A stretch of 5,550 nucleotides of DNA from a virus. A program made the position numbers and the translations under genes. Of this stretch, positions 1 through 5,550 are shown in pieces; the stretch's first letter is position 1; each line of letters begins with the position of its first letter. The DNA is taken from positions 1-5,550 of IMG/VR virus record IMGVR_UViG_3300011982_000239. The stretch is one strand, 5' to 3'. The notes beneath the pieces are model-generated. The model saw only the letters and a program-made list of their open reading frames with translations. It ran no database searches and was not told the DNA's origin.

Positions 1-81
1 GATTATGAACTTTCTGCAGAAAAGTTAAATTTATTGTATTGTGCGATTATTGATTTTACTGAATCAATAAAAATCGCATAA
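1..81 (+). CDS. 3' fragment (26 codons plus TAA) of the small HTH protein gene that begins at 5422, if the molecule is circular
   Basis: Frame 1 is open from base 1 to TAA at 79-81 (DYELSAEKLNLLYCAIIDFTESIKIA). It is in phase with the ORF running off the 3' end, whose 129 nt are exactly 43 codons. Confidence 0.55.
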   Translation, partial: DYELSAEKLNLLYCAIIDFTESIKIA

Positions 82-105
82 CATACATTATTTACATAAA
101 TATAT

Positions 106-114
106 TGGTACTAT
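106..114 (+). promoter_or_regulatory. Candidate extended -10 promoter element (TGgTACTAT) upstream of the 59-aa gene
   Basis: TG-n-TACTAT lies about 22 nt upstream of ATG 136. It is part of a roughly 17-nt motif (TATTGGTACTATTTTAT) repeated at 5382-5399. No good -35 hexamer sits at proper spacing. Confidence 0.3.
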
Positions 115-135
115 TTTATTAGAAAGGTGGTTTTT

Positions 136-315
136 ATGTCTAACACTTGTACACTAAAAGTGGAGCGTGAGATTGTTGAAAAGAATGGTAAAACTTATAA
201 GAATTTATTTCTCATCGTTCCTAAGTTCAATGGAGAAGTTAAAAAGATTTCTCTATATGATCTTAATGGCTATGCTCGTGAGTTTATTAATGATTATTTA
301 GATTCTGTTAAGTAG
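136..315 (+). CDS. 59-aa small soluble Lys/Glu-rich protein; candidate ssDNA-binding (gene V-like) protein by size and position only
   Basis: ATG 136 is preceded by AAAGGTGG (123-130). The track start at 127 is a GTG inside that RBS. The gene lies between the replication module and the structural genes. No recognisable motif. Confidence 0.6.
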   Translation: MSNTCTLKVEREIVEKNGKTYKNLFLIVPKFNGEVKKISLYDLNGYAREFINDYLDSVK

Positions 316-335
316 TTTTAGAAGGGTAGAGATCT

Positions 336-1427
336 ATGAAAAAGGTATTTATGTTTATTTTGACATTTCTAATATCTTTACAGGTAGTTTCTCTACCCGT
401 TTTTGCTTCTGGTACTGTTACTGCTATTCCATACGATAGTATGGATGCTTATGCTTATTTCTCTTCTAAAGGTTTAATTAATTTTTCTTCTTCTGGTGTT
501 CCGTCAAATATAGTACATACTGTTCCTGATAAAGAGTCCACTATTAATTGTTATGGTTCTCGTCAGTCGGAAAAATATTCTGCTGAAGAAAAGAAAAATT
601 ATAATTTTTATTGTAAAGCGTATGATGGCTATTCTGGTTATTATACTGAAAATAATTTTCTTTCTATGTCTTATCCTACTGTTTCTGGTAGATGGCGTTA
701 TACAGGTACGTATGATCCTAGTTCTTTTGTTTCTTTTGGTGGTTATCAGGGTTATATTTATCTTGAATTTCTTTCTACTGTACAAGTTTATGGTGATATT
801 TATATAGCTGGTGAGCATACACCCGTTCATTCTCATGTTGAGAATTTATTAATTCAATATGTAGCTAACTTTAGGGGTGTATCTTATTTTCATTACGTTT
901 TTAGATTTAAGTCTACTGATCCTTATTTCTCTATAGACTTTTCTCGCTTTGTTGATAAAGATGTGACTGTTGTTCCTATTCTTTTAAAACCTGAATCTTT
1001 TTTAACTGATATTGAGCGTGCGCGTTTCGGTCTTCCTACTTCTACTCAACAAGCTATATATGATTTGAAAGCTATTACTGTTCAGAAATTTGATGAATTA
1101 ATTTCTAATTTAGGTGGTGTTCCTAGTAGTGATCCTGATTTAAATCAGCTTCTTTCTACTATATCTGTTAATAATAAGAATTATGATTCTACTAATAAGA
1201 ATTTTAATGATTTAGAAAATTCTTTTTCTAATGACATGAATAATAGTTTAACTTCTATTGATTCTAATCCTAAATTAATTACTAATTCTAAGTTTATTAA
1301 TTCAATGAAGTTTGTTTCTGATTTATACACTAAATTGGTTATTGATACTCCTTTTGAACAGATTTTAATGTTTACTGCTACTTTAGGTATTGCTTTAGTT
1401 TTAATTGGAAAGTTGAGAAATAGGTGA
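336..1427 (+). CDS. pIII-like minor coat / adsorption protein (secreted, C-terminal membrane anchor)
   Basis: RBS GAAGGG is at 321-326. The N-terminal signal peptide MKKVFMFILTFLISLQVVSLPVFA/SG has a VFA cleavage-type site. The N-terminal region is Tyr/Gly-rich, followed by an Asn/Ser-rich low-complexity linker. The terminal TM helix plus basic tail is ILMFTATLGIALVLIGKLRNR. It is the largest ORF and is followed by a pVI-like gene, as in Ff phages. Confidence 0.7.
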   Translation: MKKVFMFILTFLISLQVVSLPVFASGTVTAIPYDSMDAYAYFSSKGLINFSSSGVPSNIVHTVPDKESTINCYGSRQSEKYSAEEKKNYNFYCKAYDGYSGYYTENNFLSMSYPTVSGRWRYTGTYDPSSFVSFGGYQGYIYLEFLSTVQVYGDIYIAGEHTPVHSHVENLLIQYVANFRGVSYFHYVFRFKSTDPYFSIDFSRFVDKDVTVVPILLKPESFLTDIERARFGLPTSTQQAIYDLKAITVQKFDELISNLGGVPSSDPDLNQLLSTISVNNKNYDSTNKNFNDLENSFSNDMNNSLTSIDSNPKLITNSKFINSMKFVSDLYTKLVIDTPFEQILMFTATLGIALVLIGKLRNR

Positions 1428-1642
1428 TGTTAGAATTTATTAAAACTCTTTTAGGTACTTTTGGTTCTTTGTTTACTTTTTTTTGGAATTTTATTTCTTC
1501 TTTATTTAATCTTTTTTCTAAATTACCTTCTTTTATTCTTTTTCTTACTAATAGTATTGCTTTACTTCCTATGATTCTGATTCCTTTTATTACTGCTGCT
1601 ATTAGTATTTACGTTGTTTTGTTTATTGTTGGGAGAAATTAA
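1427..1642 (+). CDS. 71-aa polytopic hydrophobic protein, pVI-like minor virion/membrane protein by position
   Basis: ATG 1427 shares its A with the upstream TGA stop (1425-1427), suggesting translational coupling. The track start at 1424 is a GTG. There are two to three hydrophobic segments, and the protein ends in ...IVGRN. Confidence 0.6.
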   Translation: MLEFIKTLLGTFGSLFTFFWNFISSLFNLFSKLPSFILFLTNSIALLPMILIPFITAAISIYVVLFIVGRN

Positions 1643-1870
1643 ATGGGTGAAGCTCTTACTTTGTTGTTTCAAATTTATTCTAAATTCATTGAATTTATTT
1701 TTGATAAAGCTGAAATTTTGAATGGTGTTACTTTAGGTTGGATTGCTTTAAGCGTTCTTATCTTTAGTGTTTTGATTAAGTCTCTTATGGCTGTTCCTTC
1801 TCGGGCCCAAGGTCATTCTTTTGGTGATAGTCCGACTGTTAAGTATTTAAAAAAGAAAAATGGTGATTGA
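1643..1870 (+). CDS. 75-aa single-pass membrane protein, function unknown
   Basis: GGGAG (1631-1635) lies 7 nt upstream of ATG 1643, which directly abuts the preceding TAA. One central TM segment (VTLGWIALSVLIFSVLIKSLMAV) and a basic C-terminus. Confidence 0.6.
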   Translation: MGEALTLLFQIYSKFIEFIFDKAEILNGVTLGWIALSVLIFSVLIKSLMAVPSRAQGHSFGDSPTVKYLKKKNGD

Positions 1871-2222
1871 TATGGATAATGGTTGCACTGTTTCTTTCGA
1901 TGGTGATCAGGGTGGTACTTATTTTGTTCCTTGTAATGTTGTTAAATTTTTAAGTGATAAAGATTTATCTTCTTCATGTTCTGAAACTATTTATTTATTT
2001 CGTGATTTATCTTTAGAACATTTTAAGATTTCTTGTTCTTCTTATTCTTTACCTTCGTATGTAGATTCTAATCATACTGTTCATTCTATTTCTAATGTGT
2101 CTAATATTCGTTTTAATGCTATGTCTAATGTTTATCGTAATTTAGATTATGTTTACTTATTTGTAGCTTTTATCGTCTCTGTATATTGTCTTTTTAAAAT
2201 GTTAAGGGGGTTTGTAAGATGA
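1860..2222 (+). CDS. About 116-120-aa protein with a C-terminal TM anchor, function unknown (possible minor virion protein)
   Basis: The ORF is open 1860-2222. An alternative and perhaps better start is ATG 1872, with GGTGA 6 nt upstream and just after the upstream TGA. The C-terminal hydrophobic anchor is YVYLFVAFIVSVYCLFKMLRGFVR. No signal peptide. Confidence 0.55.
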   Translation: MVIDMDNGCTVSFDGDQGGTYFVPCNVVKFLSDKDLSSSCSETIYLFRDLSLEHFKISCSSYSLPSYVDSNHTVHSISNVSNIRFNAMSNVYRNLDYVYLFVAFIVSVYCLFKMLRGFVR

Positions 2223-2365
2223 TAGATCAGATCATGGTTTTTCTTGGTAAGAATGATTATCCATTTTTGAGTCAGTTTCTTAGTGTTGTTGTTCTTACTG
2301 TAATTGTTTTAGTAGCTCTTAATATTCTTCAGTCTACTCTTTTTTGGGTAGGTGGTAAGAGATGA
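2219..2365 (+). CDS. 48-aa small hydrophobic protein (not in the ORF track); pVII/pIX-like virion cap protein candidate by position
   Basis: ATG 2219 overlaps the upstream TGA (ATGA) and GGGGG (2206-2210) lies 8 nt upstream. Translation is MIDQIMVFLGKNDYPFLSQFLSVVVLTVIVLVALNILQSTLFWVGGKR, with one TM segment. The stop TGA at 2363-2365 overlaps the next ATG. Confidence 0.5.
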   Translation: MIDQIMVFLGKNDYPFLSQFLSVVVLTVIVLVALNILQSTLFWVGGKR

Positions 2366-2514
2366 TGATACAGGTTGTTACTTTCGTTTTTAAGCTTATG
2401 ACTGATTGGGTTAATTTAGTTTCTTCGTCTTGGTTGTTAAGTATATTTGTGTTGTTCAGTATTATTGCACTTGTTGTAAATTTAGTTGTTAATAGTACTG
2501 CAAATAAACAGTAG
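2362..2514 (+). CDS. 50-aa small hydrophobic protein (not in the ORF track); pVII/pIX-like candidate by position
   Basis: ATG 2362 overlaps the upstream stop (ATGA) and AGGTGG (2350-2355) lies 6 nt upstream. Translation is MMIQVVTFVFKLMTDWVNLVSSSWLLSIFVLFSIIALVVNLVVNSTANKQ. It ends at TAG 2512-2514, immediately before the coat-gene RBS. Confidence 0.5.
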   Translation: MMIQVVTFVFKLMTDWVNLVSSSWLLSIFVLFSIIALVVNLVVNSTANKQ

Positions 2515-2527
2515 AAAGGGGGAAATC

Positions 2528-2695
2528 ATGGAAGCTTTATTAGCTAGTATTGCACTTGTAGCTGCTGAGATTTTTAAGTATGTTGGTACAATTGCTACTA
2601 CAATTACTTCTACACCATTATTACTACTTACAGTTGGTTTCTTGGTTGTTGGTGGTGCTGTTGGTATTTTTGGTCGTTTATTATCTAGAAATTAG
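2528..2695 (+). CDS. Major coat protein paralog 1 (pVIII-like, 55 aa)
   Basis: The strong RBS AAAGGGGGA is followed by ATG 2528. The track extension to 2486 lacks an RBS and overlaps the previous small ORF. The protein is small, with a hydrophobic/amphipathic N-terminal segment, a TSTP hinge, a Gly-rich TM helix LLLLTVGFLVVGGAVGIFG and a basic tail RLLSRN. Confidence 0.75.
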   Translation: MEALLASIALVAAEIFKYVGTIATTITSTPLLLLTVGFLVVGGAVGIFGRLLSRN

Positions 2696-2711
2696 TTAGG
2701 AGGTTGTTTTT

Positions 2712-2903
2712 ATGGAAGGTGGTGTAGTTAATCCTATGGTTGAACTTCTTAAATCTATTGGTTATGTAGCTACTGCAATTTTTACTTATGTTGGTACTAT
2801 TGCTAGTACTATTACAAGTACTCCGTTATTGTTACTTACCGTAGGTTTCTTAGTTGTTGGTGGTGCTATCGGTATTTTTGGTCGTTTGCTCTCAAGAAAC
2901 TAA
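2712..2903 (+). CDS. Major coat protein paralog 2 (pVIII-like, 63 aa)
   Basis: RBS AGGAGG lies about 8 nt upstream of ATG 2712. The protein is a full-length homolog of the preceding ORF. The C-terminal 38 residues differ at only 2 positions, and there is an 8-aa longer N-terminus. A strong terminator follows. Confidence 0.75.
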   Translation: MEGGVVNPMVELLKSIGYVATAIFTYVGTIASTITSTPLLLLTVGFLVVGGAIGIFGRLLSRN

Positions 2904-2913
2904 GTAGAAAGGT

Positions 2914-2944
2914 GGGAGCTTATAATATAAGCTCCCTTTGTTTA
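2914..2944 (+). terminator. Rho-independent terminator after the coat genes
   Basis: A perfect palindrome GGGAGCTTATAATATAAGCTCCC (2914-2936) gives a stem of about 9 bp (2914-2922 / 2928-2936). It is followed by TTTGTTTA. The placement after the major coat gene mirrors the Ff gene VIII terminator. Confidence 0.8.
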
Positions 2945-3078
2945 TGGATGTTAGTTTAATTATTAATTTTGTTATTAACGCAATTAAGATGATTTATACA
3001 TCTAATTTTGTTTTAATTTTTTTCGGTTTTGTTCTTGTTGATTGTTTGTTTTCTTTTTTTACTAGAAGGTTAATGTGA
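2944..3078 (+). CDS. Possible 44-aa hydrophobic peptide (not in the ORF track)
   Basis: Translation from ATG 2944 to TGA 3076-3078 is MDVSLIINFVINAIKMIYTSNFVLIFFGFVLVDCLFSFFTRRLM. The stop overlaps ATG 3078 of the ATPase gene (TGATG). There is no Shine-Dalgarno, and T-rich DNA yields hydrophobic peptides in any frame, so support is weak. Confidence 0.3.
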   Translation: MDVSLIINFVINAIKMIYTSNFVLIFFGFVLVDCLFSFFTRRLM

Positions 3079-3866
3079 TGTTTAAATTTATTCTTATTTT
3101 GTTTTTATTCATGTTTTTGTTTTTAAAACTTACTAATAAGTATGTTAATCCTTATAAGCTTATTATGATTTTTGGTAAAAAGGGTAGTGGTAAAACCACT
3201 ACTTTAACAAAGATAGCATTAAAAGAATTAAAAAGAAAGCATAAAGTTTATTCGACTGTTGAAATTCCTAGCACTTATCTTTTCAATACTGATGATATTG
3301 GATCTTTGACTTTTGAACCTGGTTCTACTGTTTTAATTGATGAAGTTGGTATGATTTGGGACAATCGCGATTTTAAAAATTTTAAGCCACAAGTTAGAGA
3401 TTTTTTTAAATATCAGAGACAATATAAGCTTAAAATCTATTTGTTTAGTCAGACTTTTGACATTGATTTGAAGCTTAGAAACTTAACTGATGAGATGTAT
3501 TTACTTTCTAATTGTTTTCGTGTTTTTTCTGTAGCTCGTCGTATTTCTAAGAAGATAACTATTAAAGAATGTGCTGATGGTACTAGTACTCTTTCCGATA
3601 CTTATGAATTTTATCCTTTATTGTTTGGTGGTTTAAAGTTTACTTTTATTCCTCGGTATACGTCTTTCTATAAATCTTATGATCCTAAGAAATTAGCTTA
3701 TATTAATGGTACTTATTTGGAATTAAATGATGTTCAGAAACGTTATTTAAGTAGTCGTAAATGGTTTTTTGATAAATTTAAAATCGGTTTTATTAAGTTT
3801 ATTGATTTTCTTAAGTCTGCAGTGCGCCCACGCAGTCGCACTGCAACGAAAAAAGTAGAAGGGTAG
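3078..3866 (+). CDS. Zot/pI-like P-loop NTPase, filamentous-phage assembly (morphogenesis) ATPase with an N-terminal TM anchor
   Basis: GAAGG (3065-3069) lies 8 nt upstream of ATG 3078; the track start at 3075 is a GTG. The N-terminal hydrophobic helix is FKFILILFLFMFLFLKL. Walker A GKKGSGKT is at nt 3174-3197 and Walker B VLIDE at nt 3330-3344. Size and position fit an inovirus pI. Confidence 0.75.
   Translation: MFKFILILFLFMFLFLKLTNKYVNPYKLIMIFGKKGSGKTTTLTKIALKELKRKHKVYSTVEIPSTYLFNTDDIGSLTFEPGSTVLIDEVGMIWDNRDFKNFKPQVRDFFKYQRQYKLKIYLFSQTFDIDLKLRNLTDEMYLLSNCFRVFSVARRISKKITIKECADGTSTLSDTYEFYPLLFGGLKFTFIPRYTSFYKSYDPKKLAYINGTYLELNDVQKRYLSSRKWFFDKFKIGFIKFIDFLKSAVRPRSRTATKKVEG
3818..3845. repeat. 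GC-rich inverted repeat (9-bp stem, 10-nt loop) inside the 3' end of the ATPase gene
   Basis: TGCAGTGCG (3818-3826) pairs with CGCACTGCA (3837-3845) around the loop CCCACGCAGT. It is a conspicuous GC island in AT-rich sequence. Confidence 0.7.
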
Positions 3867-3873
3867 TATTATT

Positions 3874-4023
3874 ATGTTTTTATTAAAATCGTTCTTAAAG
3901 CTTTTGTATTTGCCTTCTAAAGTTATTTATCATTTGATGATGATTGTTTTGATTCCTTTTCCAAAGTTTAGAAAAATTTTTAGTATGTGTTTTTATGTTT
4001 ATCGTAGGTGGTTATATTTATGA
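3874..4023 (+). CDS. Possible 49-aa basic hydrophobic peptide (not in the ORF track)
   Basis: ATG 3874 has GAAGGG about 10 nt upstream. Translation is MFLLKSFLKLLYLPSKVIYHLMMIVLIPFPKFRKIFSMCFYVYRRWLYL. The stop TGA at 4021-4023 overlaps ATG 4020 of the next gene (ATGA). The T-rich composition caveat applies. Confidence 0.4.
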   Translation: MFLLKSFLKLLYLPSKVIYHLMMIVLIPFPKFRKIFSMCFYVYRRWLYL

Positions 4024-4358
4024 AATTTAAAACATGTGGTTATTTAGATAAGTTTGATACTGTTGGTGGTCTTATTAAGTATTTGAAACGTAATCATTTA
4101 TTAGAAGATTCTATTGTTTATGTGATTGGTTTTGATGAAGAACGTTTGTATTCTATGTTTGATTATGATGATTTAAAGTTTTTATTATCTAGTTTCGGTA
4201 ATAGTTCTTATTATAATTGTGATCATTGTTGTGTTTCTTCTGATGTTGGTTACACAGTTGATTTTTACCAGATAATGTTAACTGATTCTTTACCTAAAGT
4301 TGGTGATTTATTTTTACAAGCTTATCCACATAAGTATGAAAATACAGATAAAAAATAG
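4020..4358 (+). CDS. 112-aa acidic soluble protein of unknown function, with a CDHCC cysteine cluster
   Basis: AGGTGG (4005-4010) lies 9 nt upstream of ATG 4020; the track start at 4008 is a GTG inside the RBS. There is no TM segment and no motif I recognise. Confidence 0.65.
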   Translation: MKFKTCGYLDKFDTVGGLIKYLKRNHLLEDSIVYVIGFDEERLYSMFDYDDLKFLLSSFGNSSYYNCDHCCVSSDVGYTVDFYQIMLTDSLPKVGDLFLQAYPHKYENTDKK

Positions 4359-4403
4359 TTATAATTTCGAAAAAAATTATAACGTTAGCTCTGCTAATTT
4401 TTT
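4358..4403 (+). terminator. AT-rich hairpin plus mini-hairpin and T-run; possible terminator and/or ssDNA structural element (packaging signal or minus-strand origin)
   Basis: GTTATAATTT (4358-4367) pairs with AAATTATAAC (4374-4383) around a 6-nt loop. Next, TTAGC (4385-4389) pairs with GCTAA (4393-4397) and is followed by TTTTTT (4398-4403). The element starts at the stop codon of the 112-aa gene. Confidence 0.4.
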
Positions 4404-4455
4404 ATATGTATTTGGCAAGCGTAAGCGCGCAAGTGTCGATTATTTTTGTAGCAAA

Positions 4456-4495
4456 AATAGTGAGGCTTCTATTACTTGATATAAGCCTCACTATT
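4456..4495 (+). other. Putative plus-strand replication origin: 13-bp stem hairpin with a candidate Rep nick site in the loop
   Basis: AATAGTGAGGCTT (4456-4468) pairs perfectly with AAGCCTCACTATT (4483-4495). The 14-nt loop is CTATTACTTGATAT. The loop 9-mer ACTTGATAT (4474-4482) equals the nick region of the phiX174 origin as I recall it. The hairpin lies about 40 nt upstream of rep. Confidence 0.55.
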
Positions 4496-4536
4496 CAAAG
4501 TAATGATTTTATCAAAGATAATTTTTAGGGGGGTCT

Positions 4537-5376
4537 ATGTTATGTGAAAGACAAGATGTCGTACGTTATTATGATTCTCGTTTAACGTTGTTTTCTGACG
4601 GAAAATTGGTCATCCGTGATTATGATTCTGCTATACAGAAGATACCTAATGGTTTTGAAGAATTACCAGGAGAATTACCAGGAGAATTAGTTACTCATTC
4701 ATCAAAAAAAGAACGTGATAAGTTTGGATCATGTCGCTTTGATAATTTGTTTAGAAGTAGAAAATTAGTTATTGATTTAGCATACGAAAATAAGGATATC
4801 TGGAAATCGTTTTTAACTCTTACATTTGCTGAAAATGTAAAGGATATTGATTTTGCGAATAAGTGTTTTAATTCTTGGTTAACTTCGGTTAGACAGTCAT
4901 TTTTTGATTTTGCATATTTATGCGTTCCTGAATTTCAGAAGAGGGGAGCTGTTCACTATCATTTATTATCTAATTTAGAGGTAGGAGGGGAGTTACTTCC
5001 AATCCAAAACGAAAAAAAGCATATGTATGATGTTAAGTATTGGAAATATGGTTTTACTTCTGCTTTTGATTTACGCTTAGCTGATGATAAATTTAATGTT
5101 TCTCTTTATGTTTGTAAGTACTTGTACAAGGATATTGATAATCGGCTTTTTGGTCGTAAGAAGATAATGCATAGTCGCAATTTGAATTTACCTAAAGTTT
5201 CTACGATTTTACAAAATAATTCTTATGTTCAATCTATTTTAGCGCATATTATTGATGATAAAGAAATTATAGAGTTTAAATTTGATTCAAAGAAAAAATT
5301 TCAAGTTGGTTTTAAGGAGCAAACAGTTTTTCTCTCTAATGATGAAATGAAGAAAATTGATTTCTTATTTACTTAA
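4537..5376 (+). CDS. rep: Rolling-circle replication initiator (HUH endonuclease superfamily Rep)
   Basis: RBS AGGGGGG is at 4527-4533. Motif I FLTLTF is at nt 4810-4827. Motif II (HUH) VHYHLL has HYH at nt 4954-4962. Motif III YVCKYLYK, with two tyrosines spaced YxxxY, is at nt 5107-5130. Confidence 0.85.
   Translation: MLCERQDVVRYYDSRLTLFSDGKLVIRDYDSAIQKIPNGFEELPGELPGELVTHSSKKERDKFGSCRFDNLFRSRKLVIDLAYENKDIWKSFLTLTFAENVKDIDFANKCFNSWLTSVRQSFFDFAYLCVPEFQKRGAVHYHLLSNLEVGGELLPIQNEKKHMYDVKYWKYGFTSAFDLRLADDKFNVSLYVCKYLYKDIDNRLFGRKKIMHSRNLNLPKVSTILQNNSYVQSILAHIIDDKEIIEFKFDSKKKFQVGFKEQTVFLSNDEMKKIDFLFT
4660..4689 (+). repeat. Perfect 12-nt tandem repeat, 2.5 copies, inside rep (encodes ELPGELPGEL)
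   Basis: GAATTACCAGGA occurs at 4660-4671 and 4672-4683, followed by GAATTA at 4684-4689. Confidence 0.9.
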
Positions 5377-5384
5377 TTTTTTAT

Positions 5385-5393
5385 TGGTAGTAT
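5385..5393 (+). promoter_or_regulatory. Candidate extended -10 promoter element (TGgTAGTAT) upstream of the HTH gene
   Basis: TG-n-TAGTAT lies about 29 nt upstream of ATG 5422. It is embedded in TATTGGTAGTATATTTAT, a near copy of the motif at 103-119. Confidence 0.3.
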
Positions 5394-5421
5394 ATTTATG
5401 GTGTAAGGAGGTATCAATTTT

Positions 5422-5550
5422 ATGTTAACGAAGTCGGACTATCGTTCGTACTTCGCTAAGTGTAAGAAATACATTAAGTTTAATTCTTTTCTTAAAGATT
5501 TAGGTATTAATCAGTCTGCATTTTCTAAGTTTATGAAAGATGATTTATTT
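5422..5550 (+). CDS. 5' part (43 codons) of a small helix-turn-helix (Xre/Cro-like) regulator; runs off the window end
   Basis: AAGGAGG (5405-5411) lies 10 nt upstream of ATG 5422. Translation is MLTKSDYRSYFAKCKKYIKFNSFLKDLGINQSAFSKFMKDDLF. The segment FLKDLGINQSAFSKFMK has the helix-turn-helix pattern typical of small phage repressors. There is no stop before base 5550. Confidence 0.6.
   Translation, partial: MLTKSDYRSYFAKCKKYIKFNSFLKDLGINQSAFSKFMKDDLF

Follow-up and report, generated by a model that had tools for sequence, protein, structure and literature searches.

In the textbook view, the capsid of a filamentous phage consists of a single kind of small helical subunit, a simplicity on which phage display relies. 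In this study we analysed two adjacent small open reading frames (ORFs) in a stretch of viral DNA of 5,550 nucleotides (nt) (IMG/VR record IMGVR_UViG_3300011982_000239, positions 1 to 5,550; the whole stretch is hereafter called the window), which probably encode two paralogous major coat proteins of an inovirus. The two paralogous genes lie in tandem in the same orientation, carry strong expression signals and have both been retained under purifying selection. Moreover, in their relatives the C-terminal halves of the two proteins are matched, whereas the N-terminal halves have not been homogenised. In their general plan the proteins are similar to pVIII of phage Ff and to the leaderless coat protein of Pf3: about 44-55 amino acids (aa), essentially one long helix, an acidic or amphipathic N-terminus, one membrane span and a short basic C-terminus. 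As in the Pf3 coat, there are two basic C-terminal residues and no recognisable signal peptide. The genetic setting is also comparable to that of pVIII and the Pf3 coat, with a gene located in the structural module of a genome that has Zot/pI and a rolling-circle Rep, provided with a strong ribosome-binding site and followed by a terminator. However, in the window there are two diverged tandem genes instead of one, the sequences and profiles show no detectable resemblance to the Pfam or PHROG coat families or to any PDB chain, Pro30 is predicted to interrupt the helix, and the probable host is Gram-positive, so that the outer-membrane secretin step would be absent.

The engineered "type 88" and "8+8" display phages offer another comparison, since they too have two coat genes with a common lattice part and different exposed N-termini. 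Type 88 vectors have a recoded second gene VIII, which prevents recombination between the copies; in parallel to this, the natural pair shows 15 synonymous differences within 38 codons and no identical run of more than 17 bases. Unlike the vector genes, the pair studied here is natural, old and widespread, and both copies are selected. Also, the variant subunit of the vectors is a minority component under separate control, whereas here both genes belong to one operon and have comparable translation signals. Duplicated coat proteins that are both kept and both used in one helical particle are represented by the MCP1/MCP2 heterodimers of the archaeal Lipothrixviridae and Tristromaviridae and by the coat protein and its minor paralog (CP/CPm) of closteroviruses, in which the minor paralog covers one end of the particle. 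The lineages, folds and nucleic acids of these viruses are unrelated to those of the window, and their paralogs have diverged over the full length, whereas here only the putative outer half diverges and the inner half stays in lockstep.

Two tandem paralogs under purifying selection

The upstream ORF (copy 1; 2528-2695, plus strand) encodes a protein of 55 aa between an ATG start and a TAG stop codon. The downstream ORF (copy 2; 2712-2903, plus strand; ATG start, TAA stop) encodes 63 aa, consisting of an acidic tail of eight residues (MEGGVVNP) and a 55-residue core that is collinear with copy 1. When the copies were aligned from the C-terminus, the last 38 codons contained 15 synonymous differences, one of which is a TCT/AGT serine switch at codon 28, and two replacements (T24S and V45I). 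Among the first 17 codons we counted nine replacements and three synonymous changes. Thus, the two homologous tandem ORFs that had been described in the original prediction, together with their coordinates and codon counts, were reproduced exactly. According to the Nei-Gojobori method, in which the serine switch and a TTA/CTC leucine pair were partly counted as non-synonymous paths, the proportions of differing synonymous (pS) and non-synonymous (pN) sites in the C-terminal 38 codons were 0.47 and 0.061, and the ratio of the corresponding substitution rates (dN/dS) between the copies was 0.085. In the N-terminal 17 codons pS and pN were 0.50 and 0.41, respectively. A repeat finder identified the pair as the largest direct repeat of the window (2548-2706 vs 2756-2914; 159 nt, 79% identity, spacing 208), and the longest identical run between the copies was 17 nt. 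The similarity of the pair goes far beyond chance.

The probable limits of the repeated unit can also be seen in the flanking DNA. The sequence GTAGAAAGG occurs just 5' of copy 1 (2511-2522) and again just past the stop codon of copy 2 (2904-2916), where it overlaps the stem of a terminator-like hairpin, and the similarity of the repeat units runs past the stop codons (2674-2703 vs 2882-2911, 70%). These features likely mark the boundaries of the original duplicated unit, which would have comprised a ribosome-binding site and the gene.

To the clade of the window we assigned 15 loci with 12 distinct DNA variants, the genomes of which are about 81-91% identical to the window. Both genes were intact at all 15 loci, chromosomal prophages included, and the copy 1 protein was identical or nearly so throughout these close relatives. 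At pS values of 0.33-0.47 the pN/pS ratio between orthologs was 0.04 for copy 1 and 0.18 for copy 2 in the N-terminal 29 codons, and 0.08 and 0.04, respectively, in the C-terminal 26 codons. The nearest non-identical neighbour was of the same copy type for each of the 30 sequences of the clade, the identity between paralogs was 0.766 within genomes vs 0.768 between genomes, and the V45/I45 difference was fixed. The same-type grouping and the equal identity of paralogs imply that the copies were already distinct in the clade ancestor and have since evolved without exchange with each other, and the low pN/pS ratios indicate purifying selection on each of them. These data agree with the earlier proposal that both copies are maintained by purifying selection. 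The proposal that the duplication is old was supported at least in the sense that no homogenisation between the copies has taken place since the clade that contains the window arose, but the near-identity of the C-terminal parts across the whole family also reflects concerted evolution, as described in the next section.

Matched cores and distinct N-termini across the family

The family comprised more than 413 clusters at 90% identity in a protein search, and a profile search of 1.84 billion representatives (50% identity) yielded 323 matches at E ≤ 0.001. We assembled 112 loci from GenBank, IMG/VR, GTDB genomes and metagenomes, plus nine added later, and located the copies with a family hidden Markov model (HMM) on six-frame ORFs. 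A tandem pair on the same strand was present in 80 of 113 sequences, 32 sequences had one copy (many of these cases lie at contig ends), and one had four copies, which would represent two prophage copies. Both copies were complete at 72 loci, which correspond to 57 unique genomes and about 15 clades (defined by average linkage; single linkage had chained all genomes together). Duplication of the major subunit would in this way span a large clade of inoviruses from human, animal and rodent gut and from the oral cavity. The titles of metagenome-assembled genomes (MAGs) suggest Oscillospiraceae, Pseudoflavonifractor, Dysosmobacter, Butyrivibrio, Lachnospiraceae and Selenomonadaceae as hosts. In the Dysosmobacter MAG contig L018 the coat pair was found twice (1045-1424 and 7460-7839, 6.4 kb apart) with identical proteins, which is consistent with tandem prophage copies.

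A true single copy, with at least 400 nt of flank on each side, was detected at 17 loci (14 unique). Three more single copies were encountered in GenBank, in the complete circular genomes of bajarodino viruses 63, 70 and 5, where the lone copy is of the extended form. The pair is carried just upstream of Zot by bajarodino viruses 67 and 45 and by the porcine Inovirus sp. MT135284, where it is annotated as "hypothetical protein" or has no annotation. Hence copy number shifts among close relatives, as seen from bajarodino viruses 63 and 70 vs 67 and 45. Losses happen but are the exception. In the single-copy loci L098 and L057 the upstream flank and N-terminus of copy 1 are joined to the downstream flank of copy 2, and these loci belong to exactly the two lineages in which the copies have 56-nt identical runs (represented by L102 and L051). 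Their single copy could have arisen either by recombinational deletion between the repeats or by collapse of the repeat during assembly. In L052 (3425-3544) the upstream copy is decayed, with stop codons in its N-terminal part, and in P0018, a contig of 996 nt, copy 1 is frameshifted. Routine frameshifting or loss of one copy among relatives had been named as the outcome that would indicate redundancy. Such a pattern was not seen, as the two copies co-occurred in 57 unique genomes vs about 17 cases of true single copy, and decayed or recombined copies were limited to a handful.

A filament sheath of two coat subunits had also been considered unusual for inoviruses. In the literature that we searched, most of it outside subscription journals, there was no report of natural tandem coat paralogs in Tubulavirales and none on the bajarodino viruses, and coat duplication is not mentioned in the survey by Roux (2019; PMC6813254), in the paper on the Enterocloster inovirus or in the 2026 Propionibacterium preprint. 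Thus, no published natural two-coat inovirus was found, but the arrangement is the common state of a large clade and not a peculiarity of this genome. With respect to annotation, our analysis supplies a name for a protein family that lacks a model in Pfam and PHROG and that every GenBank record examined labels "hypothetical".

When the two copies of each of the 57 genomes were compared, the median identity was 0.91 in residues 21-55 and 0.60 in the first 20 residues. Over residues 30-55 of the clade consensus sequences, paralogs were 98.7% identical, compared to 81% for orthologs between clades. The positions that vary among genomes, i.e., 34 (L/M/F), 36 (V/T/M), 40 (F/L/V), 41 (I/L/V), 44 (A/C/V) and 54 (R/K), matched between the copies of the same genome in 96-100% of genomes, with the codon being identical in only about 60% of these matched-residue cases. 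The presence of lineage-specific substitutions in both copies points to concerted evolution and not only to conservation since one ancient duplication. Family-wide, the identity at third codon positions was 0.62 for paralogs within genomes vs 0.43 for orthologs between genomes, the C-terminal pS between paralogs spanned 0.07 to 0.84, and the 56-nt identical runs were those of L051 and L102. The likeness at silent sites and these long runs imply that the 3' half is homogenised from time to time by gene conversion. In a permutation test that preserved codon position, 17 of the 57 genomes exceeded expectation at p < 0.01 (for the window p = 0.19); since the permutation ignores the stronger C-terminal constraint, we took only the extreme 56-nt cases as evidence of conversion. 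Thus, concerted evolution was evident in the family as a whole, but not in the window's own clade.

In addition, at matched pS values of 0.2-0.4 the number of differing residues among 26 was 1.6-3.6 for orthologs and 0-0.6 for paralogs, a comparison that is noisy (about 20 silent sites, near saturation, with only the 0.2-0.4 bins used) and hence supportive rather than decisive. This suggests selection for matched C-terminal halves beyond the effect of conversion.

The identity over the first 20 residues was 0.20-0.75 in every one of the 57 genomes, the recently converted ones included, and the N-terminal pS was always 0.36-0.85, even in freshly converted genomes. The outer half evidently does not tolerate homogenisation. 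In several clades with different cores the same two N-terminal types recur (LLTSLGEV and LL.DLGTV), and their order is swapped in two clades. The recurrence and the swapped order thus indicate a history of recombination and not one fixed ancient arrangement. A single ancient duplication with a fixed order of the copies was considered and dropped, as upstream copies showed no consistent preference for their upstream counterparts in other clades (0.467 vs 0.457).

A further difference between the copies concerns the N-terminal extension of copy 2. Among the 120 best homologues, 32 are 55 aa long and 87 have 5-14 additional, net-acidic N-terminal residues, and in the relatives it is usually the downstream copy that has the extra tail. 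The internal ATG that encodes Met9 of copy 2 (2736-2738, plus strand) is aligned exactly with Met1 of copy 1. Methionine was present at this short-form start position in 87 of 87 extended homologues, in all 57 downstream copies and in 34 of 34 sequences of alignment A2. In contrast, the aligned residue was Met in only 10 of 25 relatives that are fusions with a signal peptide, and this rarity fits a role of the Met as start codon in the short proteins. The sequence GAAGGTGG is located 13 nt upstream of ATG 2736, which is a borderline spacing. A strong ribosome-binding site precedes the conserved Met by 20-35 nt in most clades and is followed by ATG or TTG at normal spacing; as 8 of about 10 such codons are in frame, the extension appears to be translated there. 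Other clades have no canonical start past the site, or have a second Shine-Dalgarno (SD)-like motif (GGAGGAGGT, GAGGT) 7-14 nt before the conserved ATG. In the window the AGGAGG motif 8 nt before ATG 2712 favours the 63-aa product, and since Met9 is invariant and aligned with Met1, a 55-aa product from ATG 2736 may also be made. Dual or internal initiation of copy 2 is therefore possible judging from the sequence. Consequently, the eight-residue extension noted earlier is present in the ORF, but translation that starts at the conserved internal Met may skip it. The residue preceding this Met is small (T, A, P or G). Cleavage of the tail by a prepilin-type or signal peptidase was set aside, because there is neither a hydrophobic leader nor a conserved Gly.

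Putative coat identity and explanations for the pair

In copy 1, residues 1-29 make up an amphipathic helix of acidic character, which is followed by Pro30, a putative membrane segment (residues 30-49) and the basic tail GRLLSRN. AlphaFold models based on family alignments predicted helices at residues 2-28 and 30-53 of copy 1 (predicted local distance difference test score, pLDDT, 94.6), and a coil at residues 1-7 followed by helices at 8-36 and 38-61 of copy 2 (pLDDT 90.8). Apart from the 7-residue tail of copy 2, the predicted secondary structure of the copies was equal. The models of 55 and 63 aa agree with the size and helicity of coat proteins (about 40-60 aa when mature, almost wholly helical), and the three-part layout of an acidic or amphipathic N-terminus, a hydrophobic centre and a basic C-terminus is present. 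Of the 32 short homologues, 31 carry a net charge of -1 or lower on the N-terminal 29 residues, and in all 87 extended ones this charge is 0 or lower. The tail G-R-L-L-S-R/K-N/G was nearly invariant. No signal peptide was recognised in either copy, as both lack a basic n-region and a hydrophobic leader, and the tail has two arginines. By analogy with the Pf3 coat, we infer leaderless insertion with the N-terminus out and the C-terminus in; the leaderless topology that had been suggested for the pair is consistent with the sequences and with the AlphaFold models.

The expression signals of the pair are as expected of the most highly expressed structural genes. The SD sequence of copy 1 (GAAAGGGGG; 2514-2522, plus strand) is placed 5 nt before ATG 2528 and that of copy 2 (AGGAGG; 2698-2703, plus strand) 8 nt before ATG 2712. 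Computed against the Firmicute anti-SD sequence, their duplex energies were -15.3 and -12.4 kcal/mol, respectively, which confirms that each ORF has its own strong ribosome-binding site; of the 16 starts tested in the window, copy 1 ranked first and copy 2 was tied for second. The spacer between the copies is 16 nt long and comprises the ribosome-binding site of copy 2. Directly after copy 2 there is an intrinsic-terminator-like hairpin, GGGAGCTTATAATATAAGCTCCC followed by TTTGTTT (2914-2943, plus strand), with a 10-bp stem and a T-tract, and a terminator follows gene VIII in Ff as well. In nearly all relatives with enough contig the 70 nt past the downstream copy folded strongly (-17 to -43 kcal/mol), with about -17 kcal/mol in the window's clade and mostly -27 to -43 kcal/mol elsewhere, whereas the spacers between the copies were mostly weakly structured. 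We relied on folding energies, because a regular-expression test for terminators, which found 14 of 57, is an undercount, most hairpins being long or bulged. In most clades the hairpins are stronger than a terminator needs, and they could serve as packaging signals or origins as well.

The coat domain is also found in larger proteins. Among 149 representative matches, 53 were proteins of 120-350 aa in which the last ~55 residues are the coat domain, and 47 of these 53 begin with a Sec-type signal peptide; their ectodomains had no Pfam match. In L120, a gene for a 192-aa fusion (6001-6579) follows Zot, and a single ordinary coat gene of 61 aa with its own terminator precedes it. As judged from these sequences, the coat domain appears to be reused in nature to anchor varied N-terminal moieties, and the fusions look like natural display of a folded domain by means of a coat-type anchor. 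Given this reuse, it becomes more plausible that the particle displays diverged N-termini attached to a common core.

By analogy, we infer that the two ORFs are the phage's major coat protein paralogs, equivalent to pVIII, and this assignment is based on size, topology, context, conservation and expression signals. On this basis, the explanation that we prefer as best supported, and that we regard as about as likely as not, is that two co-expressed coat subunits with one lattice-forming core and two outer surfaces are assembled into one mosaic filament. Each copy would be a leaderless single-span helical protein inserted like the Pf3 coat. Residues 30-55, near-identical in both, would form the inner layer that packs the subunits and faces the DNA, and residues 1-29, together with the short acidic tail of copy 2, would form the differing outer surface. 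As the lattice-forming half would be interchangeable, one growing filament could take up both copies from the membrane, resulting in a sheath with two surface chemistries, a natural counterpart of type 88 phage. Selection, helped in some lineages by gene conversion, would hold the inner halves matched and the outer halves distinct, and the synonymous divergence, owing to which no identical run in this genome exceeds 17 bases, may limit recombinational deletion of the repeat.

Several observations weigh against this explanation. Neither protein could be assigned to a described coat family (Phage_Coat_Gp8, Phage_Coat_B, PHROG families or solved structures): Pfam and PHROG searches gave no match at E ≤ 1, the sole match of a sequence profile search of the PDB was due to chance (E = 5.6), and Foldseek comparison of the AlphaFold model with the PDB returned nothing, a single helix being too simple for a fold search. 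Thus, four of the five tested features of the functional coat class fit the pair and sequence membership does not. Since inovirus coat families are mutually unalignable, with 51 distinct major-coat families reported by Roux (2019; PMC6813254), the failed match weakens the coat assignment without excluding it. Single-copy relatives, complete circles included, imply that assembly in this family does not need two subunits, and the decayed L052 and the recombinant L098 and L057 imply that the second gene is dispensable at least in the short term. The noise of the matched-pS comparison has been described above. Finally, the C-terminal halves could be matched because of common partners (Zot, DNA) and not because of direct co-packing.

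We considered whether the relation between the subunits could be stricter than in a mosaic. In an obligate two-component lattice the copies would occupy defined alternating or paired positions with packed inner halves and interlocked outer helices, and the same slot would display the ectodomains; we regard this as unlikely. Another idea, which is likewise unlikely in our view, is that one paralog builds the body of the filament and the other has a special task, either as a minor segment or one close to the tip, as a primer of assembly, or as a membrane factor (for superinfection exclusion or as an assembly chaperone) that would dock by means of the common core. The reuse of the coat domain as an anchor in the long, mostly Sec-dependent proteins, the L120 fusion gene that is separate from the coat gene, and the extra N-terminal tail of most downstream copies speak for such a division of labour. 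However, top-ranked ribosome-binding sites, one transcription unit and one terminator predict comparable high abundance of both products, and the AlphaFold models are superimposable apart from the 7-residue tail. If the duplication only boosted the supply of a subunit that is required in thousands, the products would be equivalent and their N-terminal differences tolerated drift on a surface under little constraint. This would account for the viability of single-copy relatives, the variation of copy number between close relatives, the existence of recombinant single-copy derivatives and the great variability of N-terminal regions across the family. Yet equivalent copies should at times show conversion of the whole gene, and the first 20 residues were never more than 75% identical in the 57 genomes. 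Moreover, each N-terminus is conserved as its own ortholog in the window's clade (pN/pS 0.04 and 0.18 at pS of about 0.45), and the TSLGEV and DLGTV types recur across clades with different cores, which makes an effect of dosage alone distinctly improbable.

Less probable still is that the pair is a duplicated small membrane protein such as a toxin, an immunity protein or a holin-like protein, the true coat being encoded by, e.g., 2219-2365, 2362-2514 or 2938-3078. The lack of homology to known coat families and the presence of five other small hydrophobic ORFs in the genome would fit this scenario. However, these other ORFs are tied to adjacent genes by overlapping start and stop codons, and most of their ribosome-binding sites are weaker (-10.9 kcal/mol for orf48). 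None of them joins a single span and an acidic N-terminus with a top-ranked ribosome-binding site. The pair, in turn, is the most conserved small protein of this virus group and is located within the structural module, immediately ahead of the assembly ATPase, with a terminator after it. The original prediction had also raised a switchable surface; this would require that phase variation or alternative termination restrict expression to one of the copies at any time. No feature of the window supported this: the 16-nt spacer is taken up by the ribosome-binding site of copy 2, a terminator scan of it found none, and no promoter-quality site, invertible repeat or slippery tract was present between or around the copies. 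We therefore consider such switching highly improbable.

Whereas the evolutionary pattern is solid and unusual, its structural consequence is still a prediction. For structural virology, co-assembly of the two subunits predicts natural mosaic or heteropolymeric filaments, and an obligate two-component sheath, if true, would have no described precedent among the capsids of Tubulavirales. From the evolutionary point of view, the pair presents domain-specific concerted evolution inside a 55-codon gene, with about 15 clades as replicates. In biotechnology, it could provide a natural blueprint for stable display with two genes VIII in Gram-positive hosts, to which the proteins composed of a signal peptide, an ectodomain and a coat domain may be added.

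Genome context

The window is a complete, circularly permuted inovirus genome of 5,550 nt. An ORF that begins at 5422 exits the 3' end and resumes in frame at base 1 (5422-5550 plus 1-81), giving a protein of 69 aa that is 94% identical to the product of a gene in a related prophage. This in-frame reading through the ends indicates that the window is circular at 5,550 nt. The sizeable ORFs are all on the plus strand, and the strand is T-rich (43% T), as the coding strands of single-stranded DNA phages are. The genes with recognisable functions encode a Zot/pI-type assembly ATPase (3075-3866, plus strand; Pfam Zot PF05707, 21.9 bits at a cut-off of 20.3; phrog_25712, 3.9e-27) and a rolling-circle replication initiator (4537-5376, plus strand; PF23343 REP_ORF2-G2P, 2.4e-15; phrog_3419, 4.6e-22). 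The ORF at 336-1427 (plus strand) encodes a protein of 363 aa with a signal peptide and a C-terminal membrane anchor, which occurs at the same position in relatives. Pfam and PHROG searches with this protein gave no family match, and from its position and layout, by analogy, it would be a pIII-type adsorption protein. Between this ORF and Zot there are short hydrophobic ORFs. Thus, the small circle, the Zot/pI ATPase, the rolling-circle Rep, the short genes for membrane proteins and the location on one strand are all as expected of Tubulavirales or inovirus-type phages.

The nearest GenBank records are uncultured Inoviridae from the faeces of rodents, lemurs and pigs. A close relative of the window is a prophage integrated in a Solobacterium-like chromosome, and its copy-2 ortholog is labelled by NCBI as a protein of Solobacterium moorei. 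The best explanation of these data is a 5.55-kb inovirus of an Erysipelotrichaceae-type Firmicute. The low G+C content had prompted us to consider a plectrovirus with a Mycoplasma-type genetic code. This was set aside, as every ORF is intact when translated with table 11 and the integrated form occurs in a Solobacterium-like chromosome.

Further observations concern integration. The 21-bp sequence AAATCGCATAACATACATTAT (71-91 of the window, within 71-98) is the direct repeat that flanks the related prophage (L113, 5391-5411 and 10920-10940). The site at the prophage flank contains CGCATAA-CATACA-TTAT and is dif-like, and the gene adjoining the prophage, which is absent from the circular phage genome, encodes a Xer-type tyrosine recombinase. 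These sequences suggest a CTX-phage-like integration by host recombinases.

The tail of the coat proteins resembles the ends of two other proteins. Both the C-terminal anchor of the pIII-like protein (1386-1427 of the window, ending in GIALVLIGKLRNR) and a 47-aa protein encoded before Zot in L120 (5088-5231, containing GAIFGLIGRFLRGN) have a tail similar to the coat tail G-I-F-G-R-L-L-S-R-N, a likeness that the family HMM missed. This hints at a docking or DNA-facing motif common to virion proteins. In addition, the non-coding stretch before Rep contains two near-perfect inverted repeats (4340-4413 and 4456-4495; 17-nt arms, 94% complementary), which are candidates for a replication origin, a packaging hairpin or a terminator.

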